Part shown: piece by piece, positions 8,824-37,931 of the stretch | Numbering within the stretch: position 1 is the stretch's first letter | Layout of the letters: the number at the start of each line of letters is the position of its first letter | Source of the DNA: a virus | IMG/VR virus record: IMGVR_UViG_3300036770_001519 | Coordinates: 3,671-67,670 of that record | Direction: 5' to 3' (one strand) | Length of the DNA: 64,000 nucleotides | Notes under the pieces: model-generated | What the model was told of the DNA's origin: nothing | Seen by the model: only the letters and a program-made list of their open reading frames with translations | Databases searched by the model: none | Made by a program: the position numbers and the translations under genes

Positions 8824-8831
8824 CGAGCAAC

Positions 8832-8847
8832 AGGAGACGTATCGTAG
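8832..8847 (+). promoter_or_regulatory. Repeated motif AGGAGACGTATCGTAG, copy 2
   Basis: Intergenic, ~40 nt upstream of the RNAP start. Confidence 0.55.
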
Positions 8848-14643: not shown

Positions 14644-14647
14644 TTAT

Positions 14648-14738
14648 GGGCGTTTAGCATCTGGGTATGCAATCCTGCTTATAACAGGACTTAGTGGCCG
14701 ATTACCGCGAGAGGTGGGTTCGATTCCCTCAACGCCTA
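14648..14738 (+). tRNA. tRNA-Ile(TAT) with long variable arm
   Basis: Acceptor GGGCGTT/AACGCCT, D stem GCAT/ATGC, anticodon stem TCCTG/CAGGA with loop CT-TAT-AA, ~24-nt variable region, T loop TTCGATT. Confidence 0.75.
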
Positions 14739-14742
14739 TTAT

Positions 14743-14815
14743 GCCAAGGTAGACCAACGGCAGAGTCAACGCTCTCAAAATGCGTTAAGTGTGGGTTCGA
14801 ATCCCATCCTTGGTA
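14743..14815 (+). tRNA. tRNA-Leu(CAA) with short variable loop
   Basis: Acceptor GCCAAGG/CCTTGGT, anticodon loop CT-CAA-AA (T-T mismatch next to the loop), T arm GTGGG-TTCGAAT-CCCAT. Confidence 0.8.
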
Positions 14816-14819
14816 CTAA

Positions 14820-14892
14820 GGTTTCGTAACTCAGTTGGTAGAGTAGTGGACTTTTAATCCATAAGTCGTGGGTTCAAGTCCCACCGAAACCA
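14820..14892 (+). tRNA. tRNA-Lys(TTT)
   Basis: Canonical cloverleaf: GGTTTCG/CGAAACC, GTGGA-CTTTTAA-TCCAT, TTCAAGT. Confidence 0.93.
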
Positions 14893-14896
14893 TCAT

Positions 14897-14969
14897 ATTC
14901 CTGTAGCTCAACGGATAGAGCATCAGCCTTCTAAGCTGGTGGTTGGTGGTTCGAATCCACCCAGGAATG
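14897..14969 (+). tRNA. tRNA-Arg(TCT)
   Basis: Canonical cloverleaf: ATTCCTG/CAGGAAT, TCAGC-CTTCTAA-GCTGG, TTCGAAT. Confidence 0.93.
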
Positions 14970-14986
14970 TTAAAGGAGGATAGCAA

Positions 14987-17218: not shown

Positions 17219-17397
17219 GACGAGTGAAGATTGATATGAATGAACTTCGGCAGCAGCTTGAGCTTGTTGATATCGCATCGGATACCGCAACAGAAGATGA
17301 GCAGGTTCTGTTGGATGGTCTTGGTAACCTGCTAGACAAGATCCTGCATGGAGAAGTAGTATGCTTCTACAAGGAATTAAATGGAACACTTGAGTGA
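17215..17397 (+). CDS. Hypothetical protein
   Basis: ATGA coupling to the previous gene. Confidence 0.55.
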   Translation: MRRVKIDMNELRQQLELVDIASDTATEDEQVLLDGLGNLLDKILHGEVVCFYKELNGTLE

Positions 17398-19111
17398 ATC
17401 CAGTGTTATTCGTAGAGAGCGTTGCCCTAAGTGTGCATCGCATGGTAACGACAATAGCGGTGACAATCTTGCTGTGTATTCAGACAATCATGTACACTGC
17501 TTCAGTTGCGGATATCACAGAGGAGGAAACGGAATCGTGACAGAACAACCACCTAGCAAGCTAGACAAGCCATTGTATGGATCGTATGCCGACCTGTCTC
17601 ATCGTCGCATTGACGAGAAGACATGCCGACAGTACGGTTACAAGATGGCAAACGTGAACGGCAAGGAAGTTGAGATCGCTGATTACTTCGATCAGTCCAA
17701 CGAGTTGATCGCTCAGCATGTGCGTGGACCAGATAAGCAGTTCGTTTGGAAGGGTTCGCCCAGACAGGTGCAACTGTTTGGTCAGCATCTGTGGAAGATG
17801 GGTGGCAAGCGTCTTGTAATCACCGAGGGAGAGATCGACTGCATGACTGTGTGCCAGCTTCTTGGCGGTACATGGCCTGTAGTATCCCTGCCTAACGGTG
17901 CACAGTCTGCCGTCAAGTCAATCAAGGACAACCTTGAGTTCGTGTCTTCCTATCAGGAAGTCGTGATCTGCTTCGACATGGACGATGCAGGTCAGTCTGC
18001 CGCAAAGGCTGTCAGCGAGATCCTTCCACCTGGAAAGTGCAAGATCGCCAAGCTTCCACTCAAGGATGCCAACGAATGTCTTGTCAGCAACAACGGCAAG
18101 GCTGTCGTGTCTGCAATCTGGGAGGCTCAGGTCTACTCGCCAGACGAGATCCTGCATATCTCCCGCATCGCAGACAACGTAGACATTTTGTCTAGCCGTG
18201 TGTATCCATTTCCGTTCGACAAGCTTAGCGAGTTCCTCATTGGTCAGCGATCTGGCGAGATCAGCCTGTGGGCTAGCGGTACTGGTTCTGGCAAGTCAAC
18301 TATTCTTCGTGAGCTGATGCATCATCATCTTGAGGAGGGCAGATCGGTTGGCGCAATCATGCTTGAGGAATCTCCTCAGGAAACCATGGATGACATGATT
18401 TCCCTGATGATTAACAAGCCAGTGCGAGCCATCCGTGCAGCGCAGATGATGAACGAGCTTCGCGTCAAGATGGGCAAGCATCCAATCGACATCGACTTTG
18501 TCAACGAGTTCAGCGATGATGAGTATGCAGATGCAAAGAAGCGGTTGTGCCAAACCAATCTGTTTATCTACGATCACCTTGGCAACAACGCAATGCAGAA
18601 TCTGTTGGCACGAATGGAGTACATGGCAGTCAGCCTCAAGGTTGACGTAATCATCCTCGACCATATCACCGCTGCTGCGGCGGGTCTTATGGGTATGTCC
18701 GACAAGGATGTTGAGGGTGGCAGCAGCGAGCGTCTTATCATCGACACGTTGATGAAGGAGCTTCGTTCACTGGCTGTTCGTACTGGTGTTCACGTTGACA
18801 TTGTGTCGCAGCTAAAGAAGACCGACAAGGCATACGAGGAGGGTGACCGTATCACCCTTCAGGATCTACGTGGATCTGGTGCCCTTGCATCGGTACCAAA
18901 CACGGTCATTGCACTTGAGCGTGACCGTCAGAATCCAGACGCAACAATAGCGAACACGACAATCGTCCGTGTTCTCAAGAACAGACTCACTGGACGGGCA
19001 GGTGTTGCGACTGCCCTTTACTATGACAGGTCCAGTGGTAGACTTAGGGAAGTGGATGTAGCCTTCAATGACGAAGGCTTTCCAATCCTGAATCCAGAGG
19101 AGGTCAAATGA
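17381..19111 (+). CDS. DNA primase-helicase (T7 gp4-like)
   Basis: Zn ribbon CPKC...HCFSC; TOPRIM ITEGEID, FDMDDAG, KDAN; Walker A GTGSGKST; ILDHI, LRGSG, KNR.TG. Confidence 0.97.
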   Translation: MEHLSESSVIRRERCPKCASHGNDNSGDNLAVYSDNHVHCFSCGYHRGGNGIVTEQPPSKLDKPLYGSYADLSHRRIDEKTCRQYGYKMANVNGKEVEIADYFDQSNELIAQHVRGPDKQFVWKGSPRQVQLFGQHLWKMGGKRLVITEGEIDCMTVCQLLGGTWPVVSLPNGAQSAVKSIKDNLEFVSSYQEVVICFDMDDAGQSAAKAVSEILPPGKCKIAKLPLKDANECLVSNNGKAVVSAIWEAQVYSPDEILHISRIADNVDILSSRVYPFPFDKLSEFLIGQRSGEISLWASGTGSGKSTILRELMHHHLEEGRSVGAIMLEESPQETMDDMISLMINKPVRAIRAAQMMNELRVKMGKHPIDIDFVNEFSDDEYADAKKRLCQTNLFIYDHLGNNAMQNLLARMEYMAVSLKVDVIILDHITAAAAGLMGMSDKDVEGGSSERLIIDTLMKELRSLAVRTGVHVDIVSQLKKTDKAYEEGDRITLQDLRGSGALASVPNTVIALERDRQNPDATIANTTIVRVLKNRLTGRAGVATALYYDRSSGRLREVDVAFNDEGFPILNPEEVK

Positions 19112-19437
19112 TGGACATTGTTATTATTATTCTTCTTACAATTGCAACAGGTACTTGGGTGTGGACGTACTGGACATTCCTAAAGAACATCGACAAGTGC
19201 ATGAACGACATCAAGTGGTGCACCGAGGAGATTGAGAACCTGAACAACAAGTGCAATGACTGTCGGTTCTACTCCGACATCATCATGCGAGACATGCCAG
19301 ATATCAAGGTCAAGATGAACGACATCCATGACAACCTAAGTGGTATCATTGAGGTCGAGCGTCGTAAGCTTCTGCACAAGAAGTACAAGGATATGGCAGC
19401 ACGTTACACGCAGCTTGCCAAGGAATATGCTAAGTGA
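19108..19437 (+). CDS. Membrane-anchored coiled-coil protein
   Basis: N-terminal TM helix; GGAGG RBS. Confidence 0.65.
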   Translation: MMDIVIIILLTIATGTWVWTYWTFLKNIDKCMNDIKWCTEEIENLNNKCNDCRFYSDIIMRDMPDIKVKMNDIHDNLSGIIEVERRKLLHKKYKDMAARYTQLAKEYAK

Positions 19438-19660
19438 ATTTGAGCAGCAGTTTCTGCTGCTTCGGGCATCGGCGTGGGATATGTACGCAAGTGCCGCATT
19501 GTCAATGTCCTTGCATCCTGGTACTACCAGAGACAAGGCGACTCCGCGAACTGCGGAAGAGATAGCAATCATTGCCGACAATCTGTTGGCAGAAAGAGAC
19601 AAGCGATATGGATTTAATAAACCTAGCCCTGATGGCGACATCCCCAATGGTTGTGAATGA
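19427..19660 (+). CDS. Hypothetical protein
   Basis: AAGGA RBS; WD.Y...LHPG...AD..L.ER motif. Confidence 0.6.
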   Translation: MLSEFEQQFLLLRASAWDMYASAALSMSLHPGTTRDKATPRTAEEIAIIADNLLAERDKRYGFNKPSPDGDIPNGCE

Positions 19661-20261
19661 GCTTGTAAATGTACAGGTTGTTGCAACTGCATCCGATACT
19701 CAGCAGAGAATCTTCAGTACGGACCTTGTGTTCGGCTGGGATCCGACAGTGCTTGAGTTTATAGGAATCGACAACACAGGTACTCTTGCCAATACCAACC
19801 TATCGTTCCTAGCAACTGGAACGTGGGACTTCTACGGTATCAACGAGACTATGCCACCAGCAGATGGCAATGGTCTGTACTTCTGGCTAACTCCACTAAC
19901 TGGAATGCCTGTATATGTTCAGAATACAGGAAACCTGCTGACCACCCTGAAGTTCAGAGTTCTTCAGCCTGTTTCTACAACGGTCGAGATCATTCCTAAG
20001 CTAACTGTGAATGCGCCAGCAACTACCGTGATCTACGGTAGTGACATTCCAGGAATGTCTGTGACTGGTACGTTTACCAATGCAGAACTGTCGTGCAAGA
20101 CTGGTGACTTTAACTGCGACGGTATCACGGGATCTGCCGACATGGGTCTTCTGCTTAGCGAGTGGAACAACTCTACGTTCACAGATAGTCCGCTTGATCT
20201 CAACGGCAACGGTGTCGTTGATGCGGGTGACCTTTCAATTCTGCTAGACAACTGGGGATAA
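19608..20261 (+). CDS. Cohesin-like beta-sandwich plus dockerin/EF-hand-like tandem repeat protein
   Basis: N-terminal V.V.V.A...DLVFGWDPTVLEF.G...LLTTLKFRVL; C-terminal CKTGDFNCDGITGSADMGLLLSEW and DLNGNGVVDAGDLSILLDNWG. Confidence 0.75.
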   Translation: MDLINLALMATSPMVVNELVNVQVVATASDTQQRIFSTDLVFGWDPTVLEFIGIDNTGTLANTNLSFLATGTWDFYGINETMPPADGNGLYFWLTPLTGMPVYVQNTGNLLTTLKFRVLQPVSTTVEIIPKLTVNAPATTVIYGSDIPGMSVTGTFTNAELSCKTGDFNCDGITGSADMGLLLSEWNNSTFTDSPLDLNGNGVVDAGDLSILLDNWG

Positions 20262-20262
20262 A

Positions 20263-21978
20263 ATGCAACTGATAATCGATATTGAGTCCGATGCCCTTAT
20301 GGAGCTGACGTTAGACAGCAAGGGCAATCCAAACAAGGAGTGCAGCAAGGTACACTGCGTTGTGACCAAGGACATTGCGACCAATATCGTCCACGTGTGG
20401 CATGGCTCAGACCTTGGCAAGCCATTCCTTGACTATCTGTCCAAGGCTACGATGCTGATTGGTCACAACCTGTACGGGTTCGACCTTGAGTGTCTGAGGA
20501 GAATGCTTGGATACAACGGCAACGCCGAGATCTACGACTCTCTGATCGTCAGCAAGCTGATGTATCCAGACCTTCAGAACCACCCTCTGGGTGGCAACTC
20601 ACTCAGTGACTGGGGCAAGTACCTTGGCAACGAGAAGATCAACTACACTGGTACGTGGTCTGAGCTTACTCTTGAGATGATCGACTACTGCATTCAGGAT
20701 GTACATGTCGCACATGATATCTACAAGAAGCAGCAGGAGTGGCTGGCTTCAAAGCCAGAGTATTCCAAGGTCGTGAAGCTTGAGCATCTAGCAACGGAGA
20801 TCATCAACCAACAGCAGGTCAATGGATTCAACTTCGATCTGCCAGCTGGCGAACAACTGATGCACGAACTACTGCACACAAAGGCGCAGATAGAAGACGA
20901 GATGCGTGTCATCTTTCCAGACAAGGTTCATGTCAGGTTCTCAGACAAGACTGGCAAGCGTCTCAAGGACAAGGTTGAGGTGTTCAATCCTGGTTCACGC
21001 AAGCAGATTGCTGAACGACTGTACGAGAAATACGGGTGGACAGCACCAGAGACTGAGGCTGGCAATCCAAACGTTGACTCCTCCGTTCTAGGAGAGCTTG
21101 ACTATCCCGAGGCAAAGAAGCTTGTCGAGTACTTCGACATCATCAAGCTCATGGGTCAGGTCGAGGACTGGACTGTTCGTGCAACCAACAGCAGGGACGG
21201 CAAGGTTCACGGCTTTGTTAACGTGCAGGGTGCGGCAACTGGTCGATGCACACACTCTCAGCCGAATCTGGCTCAGGTGTCTGGCGACCACCGTGCCCGT
21301 GCCTTGTGGGTACCGCATGCAGGAGACGTATTGTTAGGATCAGACCTAAGCGGTCTTGAGCTGAGAATGCTTGCCCACTACATGCATGACTACGATGGTG
21401 GTGCATATGCCGATGTCATTCTCAACGCAGACATCCACCTTCACAATCAGGAGAAGGCTGGATTGCCCACACGCAATAATGCCAAGACATTCATCTATGG
21501 CTTTCTGTATGGTGCGGGTGATGCAAAGATCGGCAAGATCGTCAACGGTTCATCCAAGCAGGGTGCAGCACTTAAGGAGAAGTTCCTTCGTGAGCTACCT
21601 GCACTAGCCAAGGTAAAGCAGTGGGTCGAGTTCCAGGTTGCAAAGTCTGGAACAATCAGTCTAGTCGATGGTCGCAAGGCACCAGTACGTAGCAAGCATG
21701 CTGCACTTAATACTCTATTGCAGGGTAGCGGAGCGGTCGTGTCCAAGTACTGGATGATCCTTGCATGTCGCAATCTAACAAAGCGTTACGGTGCAAACAA
21801 GGTAAAGCAGGTAGCCTATGTGCACGATGAACTTCAATTCTCCTGCCCACCAGACATTGCCGATGAGGCTGGTAGGATCATAACGGATTCGGCAATAGAG
21901 GCAGGGAAGCGTCTTGGAATCAAAATGCCAATCAATGCGGAATTTAAAGTTGGAAGAAACTGGTCGGAGACTCACTAA
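20263..21978 (+). CDS. Family A DNA polymerase (T7 gp5-like) with 3'-5' exonuclease
   Basis: DIESD, GHN...FD, YC.QD (exo); TGR.THS.PN, DLSGLELR, AKTFIYGFLYG, VHDE. Confidence 0.97.
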   Translation: MQLIIDIESDALMELTLDSKGNPNKECSKVHCVVTKDIATNIVHVWHGSDLGKPFLDYLSKATMLIGHNLYGFDLECLRRMLGYNGNAEIYDSLIVSKLMYPDLQNHPLGGNSLSDWGKYLGNEKINYTGTWSELTLEMIDYCIQDVHVAHDIYKKQQEWLASKPEYSKVVKLEHLATEIINQQQVNGFNFDLPAGEQLMHELLHTKAQIEDEMRVIFPDKVHVRFSDKTGKRLKDKVEVFNPGSRKQIAERLYEKYGWTAPETEAGNPNVDSSVLGELDYPEAKKLVEYFDIIKLMGQVEDWTVRATNSRDGKVHGFVNVQGAATGRCTHSQPNLAQVSGDHRARALWVPHAGDVLLGSDLSGLELRMLAHYMHDYDGGAYADVILNADIHLHNQEKAGLPTRNNAKTFIYGFLYGAGDAKIGKIVNGSSKQGAALKEKFLRELPALAKVKQWVEFQVAKSGTISLVDGRKAPVRSKHAALNTLLQGSGAVVSKYWMILACRNLTKRYGANKVKQVAYVHDELQFSCPPDIADEAGRIITDSAIEAGKRLGIKMPINAEFKVGRNWSETH

Positions 21979-22435
21979 GTACCCATGCTATCTTGGATTC
22001 TACGACTTCACGAATGTACAAGGACGTATGCTTGGGTGGTTGGTGAAGCTGACAGGGCTGAGCCAAGTAACTCATGTTGGTCCGATCATCACGGTACCTG
22101 GCGTTGGTGACATGACTATTACCATCTGTCAGGCGCGGCATGGAAACAAAAGATATTCAAGCGTCGCAAAGATCCACACGAAGGATGCCCTGAATAAACT
22201 GGGTGTCCGTCTTATTCACAAGGCATACGTCGGTGACATAAGCATGGATCTTTCTGAGACAATAGTCAAGGCTCACAACTACACGGATGTCGGTCCATGG
22301 GATCTGATCTTCCACCAGTTCGTGGGCAGATTCATCGGTCTGACAAGACCACGGGCATGTGCATCGTATGTGTGCAGCCTATTTGATTTAGAGGACACGT
22401 GGCACCCAGCTACACTATACAGGAGATACAGATGA
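21914..22435 (+). CDS. Permuted papain-like (NlpC/P60 superfamily) protein
   Basis: THVG followed ~80 aa later by CASYV and HP..L (His before Cys). Start uncertain, possibly TTG at 21950. Confidence 0.5.
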   Translation: MESKCQSMRNLKLEETGRRLTKYPCYLGFYDFTNVQGRMLGWLVKLTGLSQVTHVGPIITVPGVGDMTITICQARHGNKRYSSVAKIHTKDALNKLGVRLIHKAYVGDISMDLSETIVKAHNYTDVGPWDLIFHQFVGRFIGLTRPRACASYVCSLFDLEDTWHPATLYRRYR

Positions 22436-23142
22436 TCACTTTACTGTTGGCAGGTCAGGCACGTGTCGGAAAGACAACCGCTGCAAACTACATCGCCAAG
22501 TATGCCAAGGCTCAGGAATACAAGCCAGTCATTCTTCCATTTGCTCAGGCAATCAAGGAAGAAGCCAAGAGGGCTGGACTTACCAAGGAAGACAACCCCA
22601 AGGAGTACAGGGCTTTCTGTCAGGAGATAGGCGAGGGTAGACGCAAGGAGAATCCAGACCACTGGATCAATCAATTCAAGGAGAAGTGGCTTGAACTATA
22701 CAGGAAAGACAACGAAGCAGCTCAGTGCGAAGACAAGATCTGGAAGGAGACGGTCGTTATTGTTGATGACTGTCGCTATCTTAATGAGCTTAACTTTGGC
22801 AAGTCGATTGGTGCCAAGACAATCTTCATTAGCCGTGGGTCCAGAAAGCTTCAGGACCAAACAGCCGATTGGAGAAAGCACGAATCAGAATCAATGGCAA
22901 ACAACTATGAGGGTGGAGTAAAAGACTATCAGGACATCTTCGACTTCATCATAAAGAACGAGGAAACCGAAGATGTCTTCTTAGCAAAGCTCAAGGACAG
23001 ACTGCCAAACTGGCTTGATGCCACGCCGTATGCATATGTTGCATGCGACTGTCTTGCTTGCAAGAAGATGAAGAAGGATGAACCGATGAAACTTGAGGAG
23101 TTCTTCAAGGATCTATTCATGGATGGAGACGATGATGACTGA
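22432..23142 (+). CDS. Deoxynucleoside monophosphate kinase-like P-loop kinase
   Basis: AGQARVGKTT, FA..IK, R...Q..GE..R, W, DDCRYLNE, HESE. Confidence 0.85.
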   Translation: MITLLLAGQARVGKTTAANYIAKYAKAQEYKPVILPFAQAIKEEAKRAGLTKEDNPKEYRAFCQEIGEGRRKENPDHWINQFKEKWLELYRKDNEAAQCEDKIWKETVVIVDDCRYLNELNFGKSIGAKTIFISRGSRKLQDQTADWRKHESESMANNYEGGVKDYQDIFDFIIKNEETEDVFLAKLKDRLPNWLDATPYAYVACDCLACKKMKKDEPMKLEEFFKDLFMDGDDDD

Positions 23143-23854
23143 AACAGCCGTACTGGACGGAGACATCCTTGCATATAGGGCTGCATTCTGGGCTGATGCC
23201 GAGGGTGGAGAATGGCTTGAGGACCGTCTTATTGATGATCTAAAGCGATGGTGTCCACCTACATGCAGCAAGATACTTGTTGCCCTTTCATGCAGACGGG
23301 AAGACAACTTCAGACGTAAGTGGCTACCGTCCTACAAGGAACACAGAAGTGACAGACCCAAACCAGACCTTCTCCCAGATGCGATGCAGTTCCTACGGGA
23401 CAACTGCACGTGTCTTGAGGATGATGGTCTGGAGGCTGATGACCTGATGGGTATGTACAAGTCATCCCTTCGGGCTGTCTGTGTCACCATTGACAAGGAT
23501 CTACAGCAGGTTCCTGGTTATTGGTGGTATCCTCCAGTAGATCCAGACTCCCCAGTAGGGGATGTACAGTATACCACCGTGGAACAGGCTGATTATTGGT
23601 TCCACAGACAGTGGATTACTGGGGATAGTACCGATAATATCCCTGGTATTTGGAAGCTAGGTCCAAAGAAGGCAGAGGCTTTACTTAGCCAAACCCTACC
23701 TAGAAACCACACACCCCTAGTCCTTTCCCTGTATGAACGCAGGGCAACGAAGGATGGCGGCATCTATACCTACGATGATGCCGTGGCTATGGGCGTAGCC
23801 GTCAGGATCCTAAGAGATGGGGAATCTCCCCTATCCTGGCTTGACGGCGAGTAG
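23132..23854 (+). CDS. 5'-3' exonuclease (T7 gp6-like)
   Basis: LDGDILAY, NFR...P.YK..R, LEADD, DKDL.Q.PG, GDSTDNIPG. Confidence 0.93.
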   Translation: MMTETAVLDGDILAYRAAFWADAEGGEWLEDRLIDDLKRWCPPTCSKILVALSCRREDNFRRKWLPSYKEHRSDRPKPDLLPDAMQFLRDNCTCLEDDGLEADDLMGMYKSSLRAVCVTIDKDLQQVPGYWWYPPVDPDSPVGDVQYTTVEQADYWFHRQWITGDSTDNIPGIWKLGPKKAEALLSQTLPRNHTPLVLSLYERRATKDGGIYTYDDAVAMGVAVRILRDGESPLSWLDGE

Positions 23855-23868
23855 GAGACGTATCGTAG
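23853..23868 (+). promoter_or_regulatory. Repeated motif AGGAGACGTATCGTAG, copy 3
   Basis: At the exonuclease stop, upstream of dut-nrdJ and the structural genes. Confidence 0.55.
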
Positions 23869-23879
23869 AGGAACAAAGA

Positions 23880-24395
23880 ATGAAGAATGAATATAAAACT
23901 GACACTTCGCTGTGGTCAAACCCCAGCACACTGGTAGCAAATACCTTCAACTATGACTTTCCAAATCAGGTAAAGATCAAAGCTAGCAAGCACGGCTTAC
24001 CTAAGAAAGCTACCCGAGGTTCGGCTGGTCTTGACCTTAGAGCAGACATCCTCAACAATATTACAATAAACCCAGGAGAAACCGTAATGGTATCTACTGG
24101 AATGTGCATGGAGATTCCCGAGGGAGTCTGTGCATTCATCATGCCGCGTTCTGGCTTGGCTTACAAGCATGGCATCACAATCCCAAATACACCAGGTCTA
24201 ATTGACTCTGACTATAGGGGAGAAATCTGCGTCATCCTCAAGAACGGAGGAACGGAACCCTTTACGATTGAGGACGGTGATCGTATTGCACAGATGCTTA
24301 TTGTGTCTTTTATTACACCGTCGTTTGTAGAAGTCGATGAACTTGGCTACAGTACCCGCAGTATTGGTGGCTTTGGATCGACAGGCATAGGATAA
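23880..24395 (+). CDS. dut: Trimeric dUTPase
   Basis: SAGLDL, PRSGLA, GLIDSDYRGE, GDRIAQ, R..GGFGSTG. Confidence 0.96.
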   Translation: MKNEYKTDTSLWSNPSTLVANTFNYDFPNQVKIKASKHGLPKKATRGSAGLDLRADILNNITINPGETVMVSTGMCMEIPEGVCAFIMPRSGLAYKHGITIPNTPGLIDSDYRGEICVILKNGGTEPFTIEDGDRIAQMLIVSFITPSFVEVDELGYSTRSIGGFGSTGIG

Positions 24396-24397
24396 GA

Positions 24398-26278
24398 ATG
24401 AATACTTTTGAAAACTTTATTGCTCTCAGTCGGTACTCAAGATGGCTTGAGTCAGAGGGTAGACGCGAGACTTGGGAGGAAACGGTGGATCGTTGGTGGA
24501 ATTACTTTTCCTCCAAGGAGCCAGCTCTCCTAGAGCGTCCCGACATCAAGCAAGCAGTACTTGCACGGGAAGTATTCCCAAGCATGCGAGCACTGATGAC
24601 AGCTGGTCCCGCACTTGATCGGGATCACACCGCACTATATAATTGCAGCTACCTTGAGATCGATTCAGTCGAGTCATTCTCAGAGCTGCAGTACATCCTC
24701 ATGTGCGGTACTGGCGTTGGATATTCCGTAGAGAGACGCTGCGTAGAGAAGCTACCGCAGGTTCCTTCGGAGATCCGAAGAGTAGACAACATCAAGATCA
24801 TCGTCCCAGACTCACGCGAGGGATGGTGCGATTCACTTAAGAACCTGCTGATCGACCTATACGGAGGCATCCATCCAACATGGGATATGTCTCTGGTCAG
24901 ACCCGCAGGTGCAAGACTCAAGACATTCGGAGGCAGAGCCTCTGGTCCTGGTCCCCTTGAGGCTGTGTTCAAGTTCATCGTCAACACCTTCTACAAGGCA
25001 CGTGGACGAAGACTTACTAGCCTTGAGTGCCATGACATCTGCTGCGTCATTGCTCAGTCGGTCATTGTCGGTGGCGTTCGTCGCTCCGCTATGATCTCAC
25101 TGAGTGATCTTGACGATCAGTCGATGGCAACTGCCAAGTCAGGAAACTGGTGGGAGAATCACTCATATCGTGCACTTGCAAACAACTCTGCGGTCTATAC
25201 CGAGAAGCCAAGCATGGGCAAGTTCCTTCAGGAGTGGACATCGCTGTACAATTCATTCAGCGGTGAACGTGGAATCCTGAATAGACAGGCACTGAACAAT
25301 GTGTGCAGTCGGGCTGGACGTTCTGTTCCAGAAGGCTGTTCGCTAGGTACGAACCCATGCTCTGAGATCATCCTCAGACCAAATGAGTTCTGCAACCTAT
25401 CGACCATCGTCATTCGTGAGAACGACAGCAAGATGGACATCCGTAGAAAGCTTGAGATGGCTACGATTCTTGGAACAGTACAGTCCAAGTTCACGTACTT
25501 CCCCTACCTCAGAAAGCAGTGGCAGGAAAACTGCGAGGAGGAGAGACTGCTGGGAGTAAGCATGACTGGTATCTTCGACAACGCATTCACTTGCGGTCGA
25601 ACCTCACCATACGAGCTTATCCAATTCCTTCAGGATCTTCGTGATGTATCTCAGGAAGTAAACCTTGAGTGGGCAGACAAGATCGACACGGCACCTTCGC
25701 GTTCGATCACCTGCGTGAAGCCAGAGGGAACCACCAGCTGTCTAGCTGGATGTGCCTCAGGACTTCATCCGCAGTATGCACCATTCTATATCCGTCGAGT
25801 TCGGCTCGACAAGAAGGATCCCCTGTATCAGCTGATGAAGGATCAAGGAGTGCCATGCGAGGACTGCGTAATGAACCCAGCTTCTACCGCAGTGTTCTCA
25901 TTCGCAATGGCTGCACCTATGGGTGCGAAGACTACACAGAACCTTGATGCGGAGACGCATCTTATCCTGTGGAGAATATATGCTGATTACTACTGCGAGC
26001 ACAAGCCCTCAGTGACAATCAACTATACAGACGCAGAGTTCCTGCGTCTTGGCGCGACCGTATACGAGCAGTTCGATCACATCTCAGGTGTGTCGTTCTT
26101 GCCCAAGGCAGAGCATACCTACCAGCAAGCTCCTTTCGAGGAGATAACGGAAGAGCAATACATTGCCTTCCCCAAGATCAATGTTGACTTCAGCTTGCTC
26201 AAGATGTACGAGCAGGAAGACACCACAAAGGCTTCACATGAGCCAGCTTGCACAGCAGGAGGTTGTACAATTCTATGA
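24398..26278 (+). CDS. nrdJ: Class II (adenosylcobalamin-dependent) ribonucleotide reductase
   Basis: PSMRAL, YNCS, TNPCSEI, FCNL, TCVKPEGT, C-terminal ACTAGGC; no beta-subunit gene nearby. Confidence 0.92.
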   Translation: MNTFENFIALSRYSRWLESEGRRETWEETVDRWWNYFSSKEPALLERPDIKQAVLAREVFPSMRALMTAGPALDRDHTALYNCSYLEIDSVESFSELQYILMCGTGVGYSVERRCVEKLPQVPSEIRRVDNIKIIVPDSREGWCDSLKNLLIDLYGGIHPTWDMSLVRPAGARLKTFGGRASGPGPLEAVFKFIVNTFYKARGRRLTSLECHDICCVIAQSVIVGGVRRSAMISLSDLDDQSMATAKSGNWWENHSYRALANNSAVYTEKPSMGKFLQEWTSLYNSFSGERGILNRQALNNVCSRAGRSVPEGCSLGTNPCSEIILRPNEFCNLSTIVIRENDSKMDIRRKLEMATILGTVQSKFTYFPYLRKQWQENCEEERLLGVSMTGIFDNAFTCGRTSPYELIQFLQDLRDVSQEVNLEWADKIDTAPSRSITCVKPEGTTSCLAGCASGLHPQYAPFYIRRVRLDKKDPLYQLMKDQGVPCEDCVMNPASTAVFSFAMAAPMGAKTTQNLDAETHLILWRIYADYYCEHKPSVTINYTDAEFLRLGATVYEQFDHISGVSFLPKAEHTYQQAPFEEITEEQYIAFPKINVDFSLLKMYEQEDTTKASHEPACTAGGCTIL

Positions 26279-26496
26279 ATAAGATAATCGAACCAACACT
26301 ACAGGTAAAGCTAGACAAGGGACTTCCCTTGACTGCACCTGAATTCGGTAGGCTTGCAAGACAGCTTGCAACCTATGTAATGGAACTTGAAAAGGAAATC
26401 AATGAACTCAAAATATCCGTATCTAGATCCAGAGTGGATCCCGATAATGAAGGAGTGGGTTCAGCCGCCAAGCTACGAACAAAACCAAACCAGTGA
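26275..26496 (+). CDS. Hypothetical protein
   Basis: ATGA coupling to nrdJ. Confidence 0.5.
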   Translation: MNKIIEPTLQVKLDKGLPLTAPEFGRLARQLATYVMELEKEINELKISVSRSRVDPDNEGVGSAAKLRTKPNQ

Positions 26497-26593
26497 AACG
26501 CTGGCTAGAAACCTTGCGTATGTAGCTGGAAAGCTGGACCTGATATCTAAGCTAGACACAATAGTAAAGCTTCAGGAGAAAAAGAATGGCTGA
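26402..26593 (+). CDS. Small protein, possibly T7 gp6.5-like
   Basis: AAGGA RBS; P.LD.E...AY.AG...I..L pattern; position before the head genes. Confidence 0.5.
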   Translation: MNSKYPYLDPEWIPIMKEWVQPPSYEQNQTSETLARNLAYVAGKLDLISKLDTIVKLQEKKNG

Positions 26594-27197
26594 AACAAAC
26601 AGACAGGCCATCTACAGGGAAGCAGCTCGCATTCGCTCGCGTCAGTTTGCAAACGAGGAACTAGGCAGCGTCGGTAGGTACTACAAGGATACCGCCGCTG
26701 CCTACGAGAAGAAGATGCAGGATGCGCTAAAGGCACAGGAAGAAATCAACAAGTTATGGGATGACAGGTTTAAGCGAGCCGAAGAAGCATATGCTTCTTG
26801 GAAGGCAAGCACAAAGAGAACCATCTTTGCACCGACCATCTCGTTGTATGGAGATGACAGACCAAACAACAAGGTAGTTGACATCTTCAAGCTCGTAGAT
26901 GAGCAAGGAAGACGCAGGACAATGGAGCAGATTGAGAAGATGGGTACATCCAAGTACGGCTATCAGTTCAGGTTGGGCGAAGAAGCAAGCCAAGCACAGC
27001 TGAACAAGATGGACGTGGATGAATACACATCCTCATTCAGCACATACAATACACGATATCAAGAGGAACTTGCCGACCTTGAGCGTCGAAACGCAGAGGC
27101 ACGGAAGAAGTTCTACGAAGATAAGCAAAGACAGCTAGCAGCTGCTGAGTCTATGTCTGCTTATCGTGGACCAACATATCAAGAGAAACCACTGTAA
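26586..27197 (+). CDS. Hypothetical helical protein, possibly virion-associated
   Basis: AGGAG RBS; 203 aa ORF. Confidence 0.7.
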   Translation: MAETNRQAIYREAARIRSRQFANEELGSVGRYYKDTAAAYEKKMQDALKAQEEINKLWDDRFKRAEEAYASWKASTKRTIFAPTISLYGDDRPNNKVVDIFKLVDEQGRRRTMEQIEKMGTSKYGYQFRLGEEASQAQLNKMDVDEYTSSFSTYNTRYQEELADLERRNAEARKKFYEDKQRQLAAAESMSAYRGPTYQEKPL

Positions 27198-27206
27198 GGA
27201 GACAAC

Positions 27207-27545
27207 ATGGGATCACCAACTGTTTCAGGCGGCATGACAGCTGCCGAGCAAAGATCACTGCTGGCAGAGGAGCGCGCCTTCCAGCAGGAGCAGGAAGACA
27301 AGAGACGCGCACAGATGCTTGAAGACGAGCGTAGACGCGAGGAACAGGCAGAGGCTGAGCGACAGAGAATCGCAGCAGAGGAAGCCGAAAGACTTGCAGA
27401 GATAAACGAGGCAGAGCAAGCCGTCATCGAAGAGGAAGAGGAGCAGACCAAGAAGACCAAGTCTGATCTTGGCAAGGTTTCCTTCTACGATGCACTTGGT
27501 CGCGGAGTAATAAACCAACCAACGATGGCTGAGAAACCAAGATGA
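27207..27545 (+). CDS. Charged coiled-coil protein before portal (gp7.3-like position)
   Basis: AAGGAG RBS; E/R-rich; directly precedes the portal gene. Confidence 0.65.
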   Translation: MGSPTVSGGMTAAEQRSLLAEERAFQQEQEDKRRAQMLEDERRREEQAEAERQRIAAEEAERLAEINEAEQAVIEEEEEQTKKTKSDLGKVSFYDALGRGVINQPTMAEKPR

Positions 27546-29140
27546 TGCTACAAGAACGCTTTCGCATACTCGACGGCAACCGTCAGAGCAAACTTGAGAG
27601 AGCGAGATATTGTTCATCACTTACGATTCCAACCATTCTTCCACCAGAATCATGGGATGAAGGCAGAACACTGCCTCAACCATACAGTTCGGTGGCAAGC
27701 AGGGGAGTAACATCCCTTGCAAGCAGGATGCTCAGTGCATTGATCCCGCTAAACGATGCACCATTCTTCAGGTTCTCACTGAAGGATGGATCATTCGTTC
27801 CGCATGAGATCGACCAGTACCTTGAGACGCTTGCGTATCAGGTGTACAGAAAGCTGACATCAACGAATCTACGTGAGTCCGTATATCAGGCTCTACAGCA
27901 TCTCATCATCACAGGCGATGTCCTTATGATGATGGATGAAAACTATTACTTTACAAACTACAGACTGGATCAATACGTTGTACAGCGCAACGTGATGGGC
28001 GAGGTAATCGAGGTTGTACACCTTGAGTACGAAGCCATCGATCCAGATGATATTCGGTGGGATCAATCATCCATTGAATACAGAGAGGGATTCTGCACGT
28101 ACTACTGCCAGTATCTTCGTCAGGAAGATGGTACATGGTACTACCGAAAGGAACATGCCAACGGAGACTTGGTTTCCGATGGCGTGTATGTCATTCCTCC
28201 ATTTGCCGTACTAAGATGGTTCAGCATTCCAGGCGAGAACTACGGCAGATCACACTGCGAGGATATCCTTGGAGATCTTCGCTCACTTGAATCATACACA
28301 AAGGCACAGATCGAAGGTCTTGCTGCAGCCAGTGCATTTTGGATTGCAATAGATCCAGGTGGCGTTACCGAAATAGATGACGTTGCGCTTATGCGTAACG
28401 GTTCATTCGTGTCGGCACGTCAGCAGGATGTGTTCACCATTTCTCCAGCGGCTACCATGAATCCCCAGATTCAAGCGGCATCTGCTGCTGTCGAGACAAT
28501 GCGTAGGGAGATTGGTCAGGCGTTCCTAATGACTGGTCAGGCACTTCCATCTGGAGACAGAGTGACGGCTACGGCTGTCAGAATGATCGGATCGGAACTT
28601 GAGACGGTTCTTGGTGGTGCGTTCAGCTCCATTGCAAGAACACTTATGCAGCCAATCGTCAACAGATGCATTGTTCAGATGCTTGCTGACGAGCTTCTTG
28701 AGGAAGGTCTTGAGGAGCAGTTTTTTGAGGAGGACGGCACACTTACCCTACATATTATCACTGGTCTTCAGGCACTTAGCAGGGATTCAGACCTGCAGAA
28801 GCTGATGCAGCTAGGTGAGATGGTAAGAAACCTGCCACCAGAAGCAGTATCTACATTCAAGTGGGATGCCTATGCATCTCAACTCATCACATCCCTTGGC
28901 TTCGATCCACGACAGTGGGTACGTGGCGAGGAGGAGGTGCGTGAGATGCAGCTCCAGCAACAGGCTCAGGCAGCGCAGCAAGCCACGGCACAGACCACAG
29001 CGGGGGCAATCGGCTCAAGCATGGCTCAGGCCGCAGGTAACGCAGCAAGCACTGCCCTTCAGTCTCCTGAGGTTCAGGCTCAAGCGCAGCAAGCACTTGG
29101 CAACATCGACCTATCGGCTCTAACTGGAGGAATGCAATGA
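27542..29140 (+). CDS. Head-tail connector (portal, T7 gp8-like)
   Basis: S..SRGV..LAS, PFFR, GENYGR, RVTAT.VR, LGG.FS, TGL.AL.R; Gln/Ala-rich tail. Confidence 0.95.
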   Translation: MMLQERFRILDGNRQSKLERARYCSSLTIPTILPPESWDEGRTLPQPYSSVASRGVTSLASRMLSALIPLNDAPFFRFSLKDGSFVPHEIDQYLETLAYQVYRKLTSTNLRESVYQALQHLIITGDVLMMMDENYYFTNYRLDQYVVQRNVMGEVIEVVHLEYEAIDPDDIRWDQSSIEYREGFCTYYCQYLRQEDGTWYYRKEHANGDLVSDGVYVIPPFAVLRWFSIPGENYGRSHCEDILGDLRSLESYTKAQIEGLAAASAFWIAIDPGGVTEIDDVALMRNGSFVSARQQDVFTISPAATMNPQIQAASAAVETMRREIGQAFLMTGQALPSGDRVTATAVRMIGSELETVLGGAFSSIARTLMQPIVNRCIVQMLADELLEEGLEEQFFEEDGTLTLHIITGLQALSRDSDLQKLMQLGEMVRNLPPEAVSTFKWDAYASQLITSLGFDPRQWVRGEEEVREMQLQQQAQAAQQATAQTTAGAIGSSMAQAAGNAASTALQSPEVQAQAQQALGNIDLSALTGGMQ

Positions 29141-29844
29141 CCTATAAGGCAGCTGGTGCAAGCAATCCAAACATAAAAAATGTAAATTCAATTACATATT
29201 GGGTTGAAACAAACGGAACAACTACCGTTAAAGTAAACCAAACCCAGTATGTGGGAAGATATCCAACACTAGATAATGCAAAAGATGCGGTAGCAGGCAT
29301 CTTAATCAAGTTAGGTAACAAGGATCCAGTCACAAGATTGGCACAAATTCTAACAGTTACCAACATTATTCCTAATAATGATGTACCTATGCCTCCAGCT
29401 AATGCCGATGTTACCCCAAACGCATTAGATTGGTATGATATTACTCATATAAGAACCTTTATACGGGATAGTCAGACTGGTGAAGATATATCACAAGAAG
29501 ATTCCTTCTCAAGTTTTTTACAACAAGTAACAGGAATAGACACGAATATTATTCTTGTTCCCACTTTTACAAGTTCAACGCTTCAACTTTGGTATAGAAA
29601 AGCAAACTTTCCATTTGCTTCTCAACAAGCATATCCACCTAACTTAGAACCAGGCTATGTACAAATAGCATCTGGTGATCAAATTATTGTTGCTCCAAAT
29701 GAGTACATTAGGTTTAAATGTTTTTTTCCATTGCCAACAGGAAGAGTAAATCCAATTAATATTGATATTACAAACAGTTCAGATGGTAATGCACTTCTAG
29801 ATACATTTACTATGGCGTATGGTCAATCTTTCACATACGTTTGA
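29137..29844 (+). CDS. AT-rich hypothetical protein between portal and scaffold
   Basis: GGAGG RBS; visibly more AT-rich codons than the flanks. Confidence 0.7.
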   Translation: MTYKAAGASNPNIKNVNSITYWVETNGTTTVKVNQTQYVGRYPTLDNAKDAVAGILIKLGNKDPVTRLAQILTVTNIIPNNDVPMPPANADVTPNALDWYDITHIRTFIRDSQTGEDISQEDSFSSFLQQVTGIDTNIILVPTFTSSTLQLWYRKANFPFASQQAYPPNLEPGYVQIASGDQIIVAPNEYIRFKCFFPLPTGRVNPINIDITNSSDGNALLDTFTMAYGQSFTYV

Positions 29845-29858
29845 AATTAAGGAAAAAC

Positions 29859-30758
29859 ATGTCAGACACACAAGAACCAACGACTCCACCAGTGGTGGAA
29901 CAATCTGCGGTTACAGCGGATCCCGTCACTGCCCGTGAATCACAGGCTTTCGAGACTTATGTAAACGCAAACAACGTCCAGGTACCAGGAAACTTCAAGT
30001 CCGTAGGTGACTGGTTCAGCGCGCTTAAGTCAGCCCAAGGCGAATACACCAAGGCTAGACAGGAAATATCAGAACTAAAGAAGCAGATTCCACAGCAGCC
30101 AGCTGTCGAGAAGGTAGCTCAGGAGCAACCTAAGGAACAACCAGTTCCTAAGATTCCAGAGGAACTACGCATTCCTGACAAGCCAGCAGTAACGGAGCAA
30201 CCTGCTACGCAAGCAGCACAAAATTTATTGACTCAAGAAGAGTGGTCAAAATACTCGACCGAGTTCAGCGTGAACGGCAATCTTTCAGAAGAATCTCGTT
30301 CAGCGATCAAGGCAAAGTTGAATGTACCAGACTTCGTGATCGATGATTTTATGCAGGGACAGAAGGCTCGCTTGCAGAACGCATACAACGAGGCGGCTCA
30401 GAGAGTAGGTGGCAAGGATACCCTTGCGCGTGTATTCGACTGGGCAAGCAAGAACCTGACCGCACAGGAACAGGCTAATGTAAACGCAGCGTTGGCGACA
30501 CCTTCATGGGAAGTTACCTTGCTAGGACTGAAGACCAAGTATGAGTCTTCGCTGGCAAGTAAGATTACTTCTCAGGAACCAGCCAAGACTGGGGCTACAA
30601 AGGTAGGATCTTCTGTTACACAAGTTAACAACCTACCCTATGCATCCAAGGCTGAGTTCTACACAGAGCGTTCGGATCCACGCTTTAAGAATGATCCAAA
30701 ATTTAGACAAGCCGTAGAGTTACGGATGTCTAAGACAAACTTCAATAATCTAAGATAA
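29859..30758 (+). CDS. Capsid assembly scaffolding protein (gp9-like)
   Basis: VGG......WA..NL, DPRF..DP.FR..VE motif; position before the capsid gene. Confidence 0.85.
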   Translation: MSDTQEPTTPPVVEQSAVTADPVTARESQAFETYVNANNVQVPGNFKSVGDWFSALKSAQGEYTKARQEISELKKQIPQQPAVEKVAQEQPKEQPVPKIPEELRIPDKPAVTEQPATQAAQNLLTQEEWSKYSTEFSVNGNLSEESRSAIKAKLNVPDFVIDDFMQGQKARLQNAYNEAAQRVGGKDTLARVFDWASKNLTAQEQANVNAALATPSWEVTLLGLKTKYESSLASKITSQEPAKTGATKVGSSVTQVNNLPYASKAEFYTERSDPRFKNDPKFRQAVELRMSKTNFNNLR

Positions 30759-30770
30759 GGAATATAAATT

Positions 30771-32111
30771 ATGGCAGTAACAGGCGATCTAGCAGCAACA
30801 GATCTAGTTTACAGAACAGACGTAGCAGCAGGGCTTTCAGGCCCACTCGCAGGTGCAAACAAGCTTTGGCTCAGCATCTGGAGCGGTGAAACCATTCACG
30901 CTTACGACGAGTACAACATGTTTGAGTCCCTTGTTGACTCAAAGACCCTCAGCAACGGCGTTGCTATGGAGTTCCCAATCACTGGTACCGTTGCGCTAAA
31001 GACCGCATGGAACGCTGGTGTAGAGCTTGTTGGCGGCGATGCTACCTCAACCACCATCGCAGTCAAGCTTGACAAGCGTCCAATCGCAGCACACTTCGAA
31101 ATCGACAATGTCGATCTCATGCAGACCCAGTGGGAGTTCCGTTCGGAGCTTGCACGTCAGGCTGGTCTAACTCTCGCCAATGCACGTGACAAGCAGATCG
31201 CTGCTTACATTGCAAGAGCAGCAGTTGAAGACCTAACCTGGAGCGGTTCAGCTACTGCTGGTTCAACCAATCTAGCTCTCGACCCAAGAGCAATTCCAGC
31301 TGGTCCAGTATTCCTCTCAGCAAAGTTTAAGAATCTTGGCGCAACCATCAACGCTGCTGCTACTCAGGCAGAAAGATCTGAAGCAGCACTTGATGCCCTC
31401 AAGGCTTGCGAGGACTTCGTTGTATACCTCCAGACCATCAATGCACCAACCGATGGCGTATACCTTGCCGTTACCCCACGCGCATTCCAGGATATTCGCG
31501 CACTCGGTGTTGCCAGAACACATGATCAGGCAGTCAGCACCCAGCCACTCTTCGGTGGCGTTGCCGCTGCTGGTGGTCTTGGCGCAGCTCTAACTCAGGG
31601 CATGAATAACCTCACCGACTCGCTTGAGTACATGGGCGTTCGAATCATCAAGAGCAACCACCTCCCAATCGGTGACTGGGATACCGCCGCAAAGAACATC
31701 GGTGAGGCACGTTACAACCTCGCATTCGATGATGCTGGTGTAGTCGGTCTTCTCTTCCAGAAGAACGCAGTTGCCTCTCTCAAGCTTCAGGGTCTAAAGG
31801 TTGACACTGTTGATGACGTTCGTCGCAACACAACCTTCACCGTTGCAAGCATGATGGCTGGTACTGGCGTTCTCCGTCCAGAGTGTGCTGCACTTCTCGT
31901 TGGTGCTACAACTGCAAACTCAGCTGCATCCTATTCCAAGGGTACTGGTAAGCTTTATGCTTCCGCAGGTACCGTACTTGCTGATGTTGATGCAGCAAAC
32001 GTCGGTGGCGCAGAAGCAGCCCTTGCAAGAAACGAACTTCGCGTTCTTTTCGGCGCAAACTTCACCAGAGAAATGCTCCCAACCGTATCCGATGGCTTCC
32101 CATACGCCTAA
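30771..32111 (+). CDS. Major capsid protein (gp10-like)
   Basis: WSGE, FP.TG, R.EL..Q.G..LA...D, G..I.KSNHLP, G.GVLRPEC. Confidence 0.95.
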   Translation: MAVTGDLAATDLVYRTDVAAGLSGPLAGANKLWLSIWSGETIHAYDEYNMFESLVDSKTLSNGVAMEFPITGTVALKTAWNAGVELVGGDATSTTIAVKLDKRPIAAHFEIDNVDLMQTQWEFRSELARQAGLTLANARDKQIAAYIARAAVEDLTWSGSATAGSTNLALDPRAIPAGPVFLSAKFKNLGATINAAATQAERSEAALDALKACEDFVVYLQTINAPTDGVYLAVTPRAFQDIRALGVARTHDQAVSTQPLFGGVAAAGGLGAALTQGMNNLTDSLEYMGVRIIKSNHLPIGDWDTAAKNIGEARYNLAFDDAGVVGLLFQKNAVASLKLQGLKVDTVDDVRRNTTFTVASMMAGTGVLRPECAALLVGATTANSAASYSKGTGKLYASAGTVLADVDAANVGGAEAALARNELRVLFGANFTREMLPTVSDGFPYA

Positions 32112-32224
32112 TTAAATTAGCGTTTGGGATCGTAATTCTTTGTTTTAGTTCCACAAAGACTTTAGCCAGAAGGGTTGCGGTGATCAAACATCTCCTCCAT
32201 ATGCCCCAGCATGTGGTTGTATAC

Positions 32225-32258
32225 GCCCATTCCCCCTTAGTTGGGGGAGTGGGTTTTT
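32225..32258 (+). terminator. Intrinsic terminator after capsid gene (T-phi equivalent)
   Basis: GCCCATTCCCCC-TTAGTT-GGGGGAGTGGGT followed by a T tract. Confidence 0.85.
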
Positions 32259-32287
32259 CATTTATCCCCAACAGAAAGGAATCATCT

Positions 32288-32932
32288 ATGGGATATCTAT
32301 CAAAGCTTGATGCAGTTAATATGATGATGCTTAGTGCTGGGGAAAGCCTGGTGGCTGACCTACAGGAAGCATCGGGCATCGACACAGGCATAGCAGAATT
32401 CCTGCTTGACCAATACAGCATGGAGCATCAGCTCCGTGGAATCGCAGAAAACAAGATAGTCAAGAAGGTAAGACCAGACGAGAATGGTCACATTCTACTT
32501 GGCTATCCAAACAACGACTACCTTGGAGTGATCGAAGCATCGCTGCTATCGTCCCACTACAATGAAGAGAGAATGTACATTCGCGCACGTGCAACCGAAA
32601 CCAATCCACCTCGCCTATTTAATATGACAGACGAGACAGACGTTTGGGAGGACGAGGAATACCATGTCTCCATCACGGCATTGCTTAGATGGGAACAGCT
32701 TGACACGACAACCCAACGTGCAATACTTGGAAGTGCAATGCGGAAGTACCAGCTTCTAACCCAAGGTGACAGAACACTTGATGCTGTTCTTGCTCAGGAT
32801 GAAATGCTCAGTCGTATTCGTGCACGTTCAAACGACATCACGGACAAGAAGAGAAACATCCTGATGAACTCAGACGCAGCCAACAGATGGCCTTACTTTG
32901 TAAATAGAAGACTCTGGAATGGAGGCTTCTGA
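32288..32932 (+). CDS. Tail tubular protein A (gp11-like)
   Basis: LDAVN.M....GE N-terminus; AAGGA RBS. Confidence 0.85.
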   Translation: MGYLSKLDAVNMMMLSAGESLVADLQEASGIDTGIAEFLLDQYSMEHQLRGIAENKIVKKVRPDENGHILLGYPNNDYLGVIEASLLSSHYNEERMYIRARATETNPPRLFNMTDETDVWEDEEYHVSITALLRWEQLDTTTQRAILGSAMRKYQLLTQGDRTLDAVLAQDEMLSRIRARSNDITDKKRNILMNSDAANRWPYFVNRRLWNGGF

Positions 32933-35607: not shown

Positions 35608-35609
35608 AC

Positions 35610-36515: not shown

Positions 36516-36523
36516 GGTAAATA

Positions 36524-37930: not shown

Positions 37931-37931
37931 C

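Follow-up and report, generated by a model that had tools for sequence, protein, structure and literature searches.

A cohesin-dockerin protein family in T7-like and larger phages and its possible docking to host surface proteins

A 67,670-bp virus record in IMG/VR (IMGVR_UViG_3300036770_001519), which CheckV rates as 100% complete, encodes a protein, P0001, in which a domain predicted to have a cohesin fold is followed by a predicted two-repeat dockerin. The window analyzed here comprises bases 3671–67670 of this record, 64,000 nucleotides (nt) in all. In bacterial cellulosomes, components are joined by cohesin-dockerin pairs, classic connectors of high affinity that also have wide use in protein engineering. 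P0001 is a putative minimal adaptor with one cohesin and one dockerin, long resident in phages; members of its family, some with and some without an export signal, occur on several phage backbones, and near-identical phages swap them as a cassette. We put the probability that P0001 docks to cohesin- or dockerin-bearing surface proteins of its host at roughly 0.7. That it aids adsorption by bridging the phage to a surface display network of the host is a more tentative suggestion, to which we give a little less than even odds. No phage family that unites a cohesin with a dockerin was described in the literature searched; the nearest report mentions dockerin domains on one viral contig (PMC13452462).

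Domain architecture of P0001

A word-indexed search returned 16 homologues of P0001 with 96–39% identity, and 29 columns are invariant across the alignment of these 17 sequences. The AlphaFold2 model based on the 17 family members has a mean predicted local distance difference test score (pLDDT) of 83.2 and a predicted template modeling score (pTM) of 0.77. Compared with the PDB by Foldseek, the model has 86 matches at E ≤ 0.001, and the top ones listed are cohesin modules or cohesin-containing complexes. The best match is 5lxv_A (E = 1.5e-8), and 6kgc_A reaches a template modeling score of 0.79 normalized to the target. Identity to solved cohesins across Foldseek matches is 9–19%. The Pfam Cohesin model PF00963 matches residues 16–123 at E = 0.0016 with 19.1 bits, below its cut-off of 24.1, and a precomputed match to it exists for one homologue of the 16 (P0006). 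We let the fold decide despite the sub-threshold Pfam score: as modeled, the N-terminal domain is a cohesin fold, a nine-stranded beta-sandwich. A signature of the family, D-F-Y-G-I-N-E ... P-P-A-D-G-N-G-L-Y, lies at residues 74–91, inside this domain. Among viral structures in BFVD, eight match the model at E ≤ 0.001, the best being an unnamed 243-amino acid (aa) protein (E = 4.3e-6).

The C-terminus of P0001 is, by its motifs and in the model, a dockerin of two repeats, and neither calcium loop is disrupted. Each loop is 12 residues long and follows the canonical spacing D-x-N-x-[DN]-G-x5-D, and D167, D178, D197, and D208 are invariant in the 17 family members. The model places helices at residues 176–184 and 206–214, one after each loop, as expected of a dockerin. 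The Pfam model Dockerin_1 (PF00404) matches residues 166–212 at E = 0.0016 with 19.0 bits, again below its cut-off (22.9). Precomputed matches to PF00404 exist for half of the homologues (8 of 16), and 7 of 16 have neither PF00404 nor PF00963. When the C-terminal 53 residues are compared with PDB sequences, the best matches are dockerins, with weak E values of 0.019–0.27. The GC-type dockerin model NF041540 does not match P0001; homologues P0013 and P0026 score 17 bits against its cut-off of 29. P0001 as a whole has no match in PHROGs, in NCBIfam (E ≤ 0.1), or, by tblastn, in GenBank phages.

A first-pass annotation of the window, made from the letters alone, had described a phage protein that is part cohesin-like and part dockerin-like, with two calcium-loop repeats ending in LLDNWG. 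Fold and calcium-loop motifs bear out this description. The strings that it quoted (DLVFGWDPTVLEFIG, TTLKFRVL, DFNCDGITGSAD..LLLSEW, and DLNGNGVVDAGD..LLDNWG) are all found in P0001. Its beta-rich domain is also present, although at ∼160 rather than ∼170 aa.

Judged by eye and from the alignment, P0001 has no signal peptide, in agreement with the first-pass annotation. Its N-terminus is without a basic residue and begins at the first cohesin strand. Longer homologues have ∼25 additional N-terminal residues of the type M-K/R, hydrophobic stretch, A-Q-T-D-P-N, which place a signal peptide before that strand. An alternative TTG start at 19572 would extend P0001 to 229 aa.

The architecture resembles that of cellulosomal adaptor scaffoldins, whose cohesin modules, folded as beta-sandwiches, precede a C-terminal dockerin that binds calcium through two repeats on the same chain, and adaptor-scaffoldin structures (3l8q, 5lxv, and 4uyq) are among the fold matches. 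The ScaA proteins of Acetivibrio cellulolyticus and Ruminococcus flavefaciens are adaptors of this kind. Like them, P0001 carries cohesin and dockerin on one polypeptide. It differs in having a single cohesin, in the absence of an N-terminal signal peptide (by eye) and of carbohydrate-active cargo, in having neither cargo, anchor, nor other partner encoded in its own genome, and in being phage-encoded. The Archaeoglobus fulgidus cohesin 2xdh is likewise non-cellulosomal and ranks 43rd among the fold matches (E = 7.2e-6); it differs in being archaeal and cellular, and sequence search finds no relation to P0001. Its parent protein presumably carries a dockerin too.

Table 1. Coordinates of P0001, its domains, and associated features (positions in the window, except in the last row).
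Feature	Position	Strand	Basis or remark
P0001 open reading frame, cohesin-dockerin, 217 aa	19608..20261	+	Stop-free translation; 16 homologues at E ≤ 0.001
Predicted cohesin-fold domain, residues 1–160	19608..20087	+	AlphaFold2 model; Foldseek; Pfam below cut-off
Predicted dockerin repeat 1, residues 165–187	20100..20168	+	Calcium loop D167–D178, then helix
Predicted dockerin repeat 2, residues 195–217	20190..20258	+	Calcium loop D197–D208, then helix; ends LLDNWG
Divergence island (swapped cassette)	19619..20186	+	Nucleotide identity to L004/L020 of 37–53%
Upstream flank, T7 gp4-like primase/helicase	17381..19111	+	phrog_239, E = 6e-163
Downstream flank, family A DNA polymerase	20263..21978	+	84–86% aa identity in L003/L004/L020
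224-aa neighbour protein in larger phages	L005 3202–3876; L006 6893–7567; L009 6875–7549		Also L019, L021, L078

Phage backbones and exchange of alleles

The family extends well beyond the window. When 1.84 billion representative proteins were searched exhaustively with HMMER, 1498 matched at E ≤ 0.001, 177 of them at E ≤ 1e-10 and 8 at E ≤ 1e-30. In IMG/VR, 22 viral loci were confirmed from 65 pattern matches, and a scan of JGI metagenomes confirmed a further set of 26 from 176 pattern matches, at least four of which are on the same contigs as the viral loci. Gene neighbours in these loci indicate that the P0001 family is resident on at least four phage backbones.

The first context is that of the window and its close kin. 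As the first-pass annotation had stated, the P0001 gene lies between helicase and polymerase genes, and its stop codon is separated from the start of the DNA polymerase by 1 nt. Loci L003/L004 and L020 have an allele in the same slot. Their helicase is 90% and their polymerase 84–86% identical to those of the window, whereas the P0001 allele is only 38–39% identical. A fragment of a related phage (L094 1–2076) has a helicase that is 94% identical over 435 aa and, in the same slot, an allele cut short by the contig end, with 33% identity across the 90 residues present. The second context is a second T7-like lineage, L001 and L002, which has the alleles nearest to P0001 (54–60% identity; by tblastn 52–57%, and 60% over cohesin columns). 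In this lineage, a cluster of fibre-like genes separates portal from scaffold, and the cohesin-dockerin gene closes that cluster, overlapping the stop of a homologue of window gene 44313–44717. By gene neighbours, four of five further contigs (L072–L076) belong with this context. In the third context, L022, a T7-like phage with a guanine plus cytosine (GC) content of 58%, the gene is between the scaffold and major capsid genes. The fourth consists of larger phages, in which the gene occurs with those for ribonucleotide reductase and ThyX and, in some, with genes for a tubulin-like protein, a RuvC-like protein, and a nuclease. Across the 22 viral versions, a signal peptide was recognized by eye in 15, among them most of those from the larger phages; six lack one, all of them T7-like, and one is cut by a contig end.

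Alleles of close kin differ within sharp boundaries. Relative to L004/L020, nucleotide breakpoints bound a cassette that covers most of the P0001 gene (table 1), and the flanks on either side (helicase, short upstream open reading frame [ORF], and polymerase) have 69–90% nucleotide identity, with recovery from position 20187 onward. Divergent alleles in one slot between conserved flanks are a pattern typical of host-interaction genes. The short upstream ORF (19427–19660) runs 53 nt into the start of the cohesin-dockerin gene and has 83–88% nucleotide identity in L003, L004, and L020 up to the point where the cassette diverges.

Relationships within the family also differ from those of the phages. 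In an unrooted tree built from 80 cohesin domains by maximum likelihood (LG+G4, quick search, Shimodaira-Hasegawa-like approximate likelihood ratio test [SH-aLRT] support only), P0001 groups with L001/L002 at 97% support and not with its genomic kin L003/L020, so alleles move between phage backbones. Divergence is uneven along the protein. Between P0001 and the L003/L004 allele, the cohesin is 38%, dockerin repeat 1 is 48%, and repeat 2 is 83% identical. A conserved repeat 2 next to a fast-changing cohesin suggests that the modules track different partners rather than each other, perhaps an invariable one in the case of the dockerin and a changing one in that of the cohesin.

Two sets of neighbours were observed in the larger phages. 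L007 (3050–3844 and 5138–6331) and L008 (6801–7556) encode barrel-like and tubulin/FtsZ-like proteins near the cohesin-dockerin gene. The outer-membrane-barrel-like protein has a weak match to the Opacity family and a C-terminal F. In larger sister phages, a conserved 224-aa protein is encoded just upstream of the signal-peptide-bearing cohesin-dockerin gene (table 1). It combines a signal peptide with a beta-sandwich domain, a generic jelly roll by fold, and a tail composed of P-x-P-G, a hydrophobic stretch, and RRRR, and none of its 120 homologues has a precomputed Pfam domain. The tail has the look of PEP-CTERM, without a match to the PEP-CTERM model. This neighbour was considered and rejected as a cohesin partner (candidate c6): its model (pLDDT 83.3) matches generic viral and carbohydrate-binding-module-like beta-sandwiches and no cohesins.

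Possible functions of a phage-borne adaptor

P0001 has no evident partner in its own phage. Profile hidden Markov models of both halves of the family, compared with the complete 67.7-kb genome translated in six frames, recovered the P0001 gene alone, and Pfam matched neither domain in ten large phage proteins that are structural or of unknown function. Because the phage genome has no other cohesin or dockerin, the partners of P0001 are probably host surface proteins or P0001 itself. Dockerins require calcium for folding. This requirement, together with a closed Sec route, suggests that P0001 acts outside the cytoplasm, and a cytoplasmic role was set aside because of the calcium requirement.

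A cohesin/dockerin "planctosome" has been put forward as a hypothesis for freshwater Phycisphaerae of the Nemodlikiaceae/CL500-3 (Andrei et al. 2019, PMC6461901). That account resembles the present case in describing a non-cellulosomal cohesin/dockerin system in freshwater Planctomycetota with an adaptor that has both modules; the adaptor differs in being cellular and in having a signal peptide and a hyaline-repeat domain (PMC6461901).

We suggest that P0001 may ride on the virion or be released at lysis and that it would then join, in a calcium-dependent manner, a planctosome-like network of cohesins and dockerins on the host surface, thereby aiding adsorption. Swapped alleles would match different variants of the host surface. 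Adsorption is preferred among the possible consequences of docking on two grounds: clusters of fibre and capsid genes are where the nearest alleles are located, and the swapping resembles that of receptor-binding genes. A stronger version, in which the adaptor turns the display network of the host into a phage receptor and exchangeable alleles set host range, is regarded as unlikely; were it correct, it would be a new adsorption principle and would provide a first molecular handle on phages of abundant uncultured freshwater Phycisphaerae. If P0001 docks to cohesins or dockerins of the host surface, viruses would exploit these connectors for attachment or exclusion. The family would then also offer a supply of small, naturally diversified, and orthogonal cohesin-dockerin pairs and a testable marker for phages of Planctomycetota-like lake hosts, for which few phages are known.

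Several points weigh against a role in adsorption. In the carrier phage, the P0001 gene is inside the middle-gene replication module, with no link to the virion, and no promoter or terminator of its own was detected. The 15 of 22 viral versions that have a signal peptide fit export from the infected cell better than a role on the virion. Gene position is itself weak evidence, since morons also land in structural modules. Finally, the existence of host partners is an assumption.

The role as decoy or adaptor that the first-pass annotation had proposed, with receptor masking or superinfection exclusion as its effect, is plausible. P0001 would in this case saturate cohesin or dockerin sites on the host surface that serve phages as receptors. 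Versions with a signal peptide would act on the infected cell, whereas P0001 would act on debris or neighbouring cells after lysis, so that progeny are spared futile adsorption or competing phages are blocked. Masking fits the signal-peptide versions better. These have their genes among those for non-structural proteins (ribonucleotide reductase, ThyX, and nuclease) and adjoin other exported proteins, the copy in the window is in a replication module, and fast turnover of alleles suits exclusion genes too. However, P0001 has no export signal and could mask receptors only after lysis, and the locations of the nearest alleles among fibre or capsid genes are not those expected from masking. Masking is the main rival reading, one that we consider rather unlikely.

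A further alternative is that P0001 rewires the host surface in the style of an auxiliary gene. An additional adaptor scaffoldin could alter the set of dockerin-tagged enzymes or adhesins on display or the links between them and keep infected cells or virions on particles where hosts are dense. Domain architecture is consistent with this alternative, as are the cellular relatives, which are cohesin-dockerin or cohesin-PEP-CTERM proteins, and the dockerin domains that were reported on a viral contig in a context of adhesion (PMC13452462). However, lacking a signal peptide, P0001 has no route to the outside of an infected cell that is still alive, infections by lytic phages of the T7 type are short, and no cargo gene is nearby. 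Rewiring is very improbable.

Self-assembly is the least probable of the alternatives. The dockerin of one molecule would bind the cohesin of the next, forming head-to-tail chains, or its own cohesin, forming a closed monomer; a calcium-triggered glue or lattice at lysis would be an example. Both modules are in one chain with no other partner in the phage, and the pTM of the model indicates that the two domains are placed with some mutual confidence, but the contrast between a conserved repeat 2 and a fast-changing cohesin points to separate partners. Prediction of a complex between the cohesin half (residues 1–160) and the dockerin half (161–217) gave a score of 0.01 and a mark of 0.32, without controls, and carries no weight either way. 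Docking to host surface proteins, with adsorption as its tentative purpose, is the reading that we retain.

Cellular relatives, host, and carrier phage

Cellular relatives of P0001 point to Planctomycetota. Of 46 candidate stretches from a motif scan of one genome per species (185,579 species), 4 were confirmed, and each of them is from Planctomycetota: two in Phycisphaeraceae, one in Phycisphaerales, and one in "Planctomycetales." The query was a narrow alignment of phage sequences, and distant relatives in other phyla could have escaped it. Identity of P0001 to these relatives is 27–38%. In the same four genomes, a broad profile of the family has 18, 79, 35, and 16 matches; each genome has one to four small cohesin-containing ORFs, and up to ∼75 matches per genome are dockerin-only and located at the C-terminus of large ORFs. 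In a sample of 301 Phycisphaerae genomes, with nine candidates scored per genome so that counts are lower bounds, at least 45 have a match at E ≤ 1e-15, and at least 27 have a cohesin-spanning match among those listed. These numbers agree with the statement in the first-pass annotation that the C-terminal pattern is abundant in Phycisphaerales. Across most of the loci compared, the dockerin repeats of the phage are 43–54% identical to C-terminal dockerins of Phycisphaerae. The narrow phage-type profile, in contrast, matches only 3 of 401 sampled Planctomycetota genomes at E ≤ 1e-10.

Small, apparently secreted proteins of Planctomycetota (such as P0026, P0130, and P0131; uncharacterized) are among the closest known counterparts. 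They have a homologous cohesin that includes PPxDGxGLY, belong to the same size class, and have a dockerin ending in LLxxWG; they differ in having signal peptides (by eye), a composition rich in G, A, R, and P (high GC), and, in many, WGPCP or PEP-CTERM ends. By a crude heuristic for classing starts and tails, most of the distant representatives, on the cellular side, combine a signal-peptide-like start with either a dockerin (often WGPCP) or a PEP-CTERM-like tail; P0130 and P0131 exceed the PEP-CTERM cut-off.

The first-pass annotation had also interpreted P0001 as a module captured from the host. Instead of a recent capture, the data indicate a phage family of 22 loci that forms a separate, supported group in the tree. 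All 19 distinct viral sequences fall in one group of 29 rows with 99% support and no Planctomycetota sequence, and all 18 Planctomycetota sequences are across a split from the viral group with 98% support. The tree is unrooted and carries no information on the direction of transfer. Recent capture from a high-GC host was rejected separately, since the GC content of the gene (47.9%) equals that of the phage (46.6%).

Whether the host is itself a planctomycete is more finely balanced. A host in Planctomycetota is, in our estimate, at even odds or slightly better. The Phycisphaerae host suggested by the first-pass annotation gains from the phylum of the cellular relatives and loses from a GC mismatch, the absence of a CRISPR match in the 20 kb searched, and a Latescibacterota label, and we retain it as a lead. 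The competing view is that the family resides in phages of another diderm phylum that has cohesins and dockerins, for example Latescibacterota, and that similarity to Planctomycetota reflects distant common ancestry. We regard this view as a substantial possibility, somewhat short of even. The rank-1 cluster in the ESM Atlas (204 aa) is labeled mostly Latescibacterota, with the phylum known for 14 of 52 members; it is probably the cluster of P0001 itself because the Atlas includes P0001 from residue 14 onward. In the same direction are the low identity to planctomycete relatives, the scarcity of the narrow profile in Planctomycetota genomes, and the GC content of the phage, since Planctomycetota loci range from 53% to 74%. 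Traces of spacers or prophages were sought with window positions 20001–40000 in the 301 Phycisphaerae genomes. Only imperfect matches of 24–84 nt in 13 genomes were found, and three loci with such short DNA matches, when inspected, had no repeat arrays. The CRISPR-spacer matching that the first-pass annotation had advised thus gave no CRISPR-type match in these 20 kb.

Against a host outside Planctomycetota, all four loci confirmed in the motif scan are planctomycete, and the dockerin repeats resemble those of Phycisphaerae. Five of the 15 short DNA matches listed are located in the dockerin-coding segment of 150 nt. The phage also encodes four transfer RNAs (tRNAs) that read codons presumably rare in high-GC genomes, as would be expected if the host had a higher GC content than the phage. 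These form a cluster at 14647–14970 (Ile-TAT, Leu-CAA, Lys-TTT, and Arg-TCT), and all read A/U-rich codons. Habitat was also counted in favor of a planctomycete host. The phage has a word share of 0.26–0.50 in sequencing runs from five studies labeled as freshwater metagenomes, and it is present in subsurface runs of one study, possibly the source of the record; runs with a share below 0.2 (X12–X20; wetland, lake, and aquatic labels) were set aside for habitat.

By its gene content, the carrier is a large, very divergent T7-like phage. Its large ORFs are all on one strand. Genes for replication and nucleotide metabolism encode a single-subunit RNA polymerase, ThyX, a gp4-like primase/helicase, a family A DNA polymerase, a deoxynucleoside monophosphate (dNMP) kinase, an exonuclease, dUTPase, and ribonucleotide reductase. 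Further genes encode the portal, scaffold, major capsid protein, tail tube A and B, a T7-type fibre N-terminus, a 1775-aa fibre with Mtd_N, terminase, and a gp14-like internal protein. The polymerase, portal, and RNA polymerase are 27–43% identical to those of cultured phages.

Several other features of the genome were observed. The product of the fibre gene (38984–44311, 1775 aa) matches Mtd_N twice and also includes a phage tail repeat and, at its C-terminus, a domain rich in glycine; the gene contains internal 197-nt and glycine-codon repeats. The gene that follows it (44313–44717, 134 aa) is a homologue of the one directly preceding the cohesin-dockerin gene in L001, L002, and L072. A giant ORF (55395–64000) is open at the end of the window, with 2868 aa in the window and 2878 aa in the record; Pfam found no match in the 2868-aa part. 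Another ORF, of 1435 aa, opens at base 2 of the record (L048 2–4306). The opening 50 nt of the record appear again at ∼67,473, so the record is probably circularly closed and the giant ORF may reach ∼4,250 aa. Lastly, a motif ending in AGGAGACGTATCGTAG occurs at 809–832, 8824–8847, and 23845–23868, with one copy just upstream of the RNA polymerase gene, and is a candidate promoter or regulatory site.

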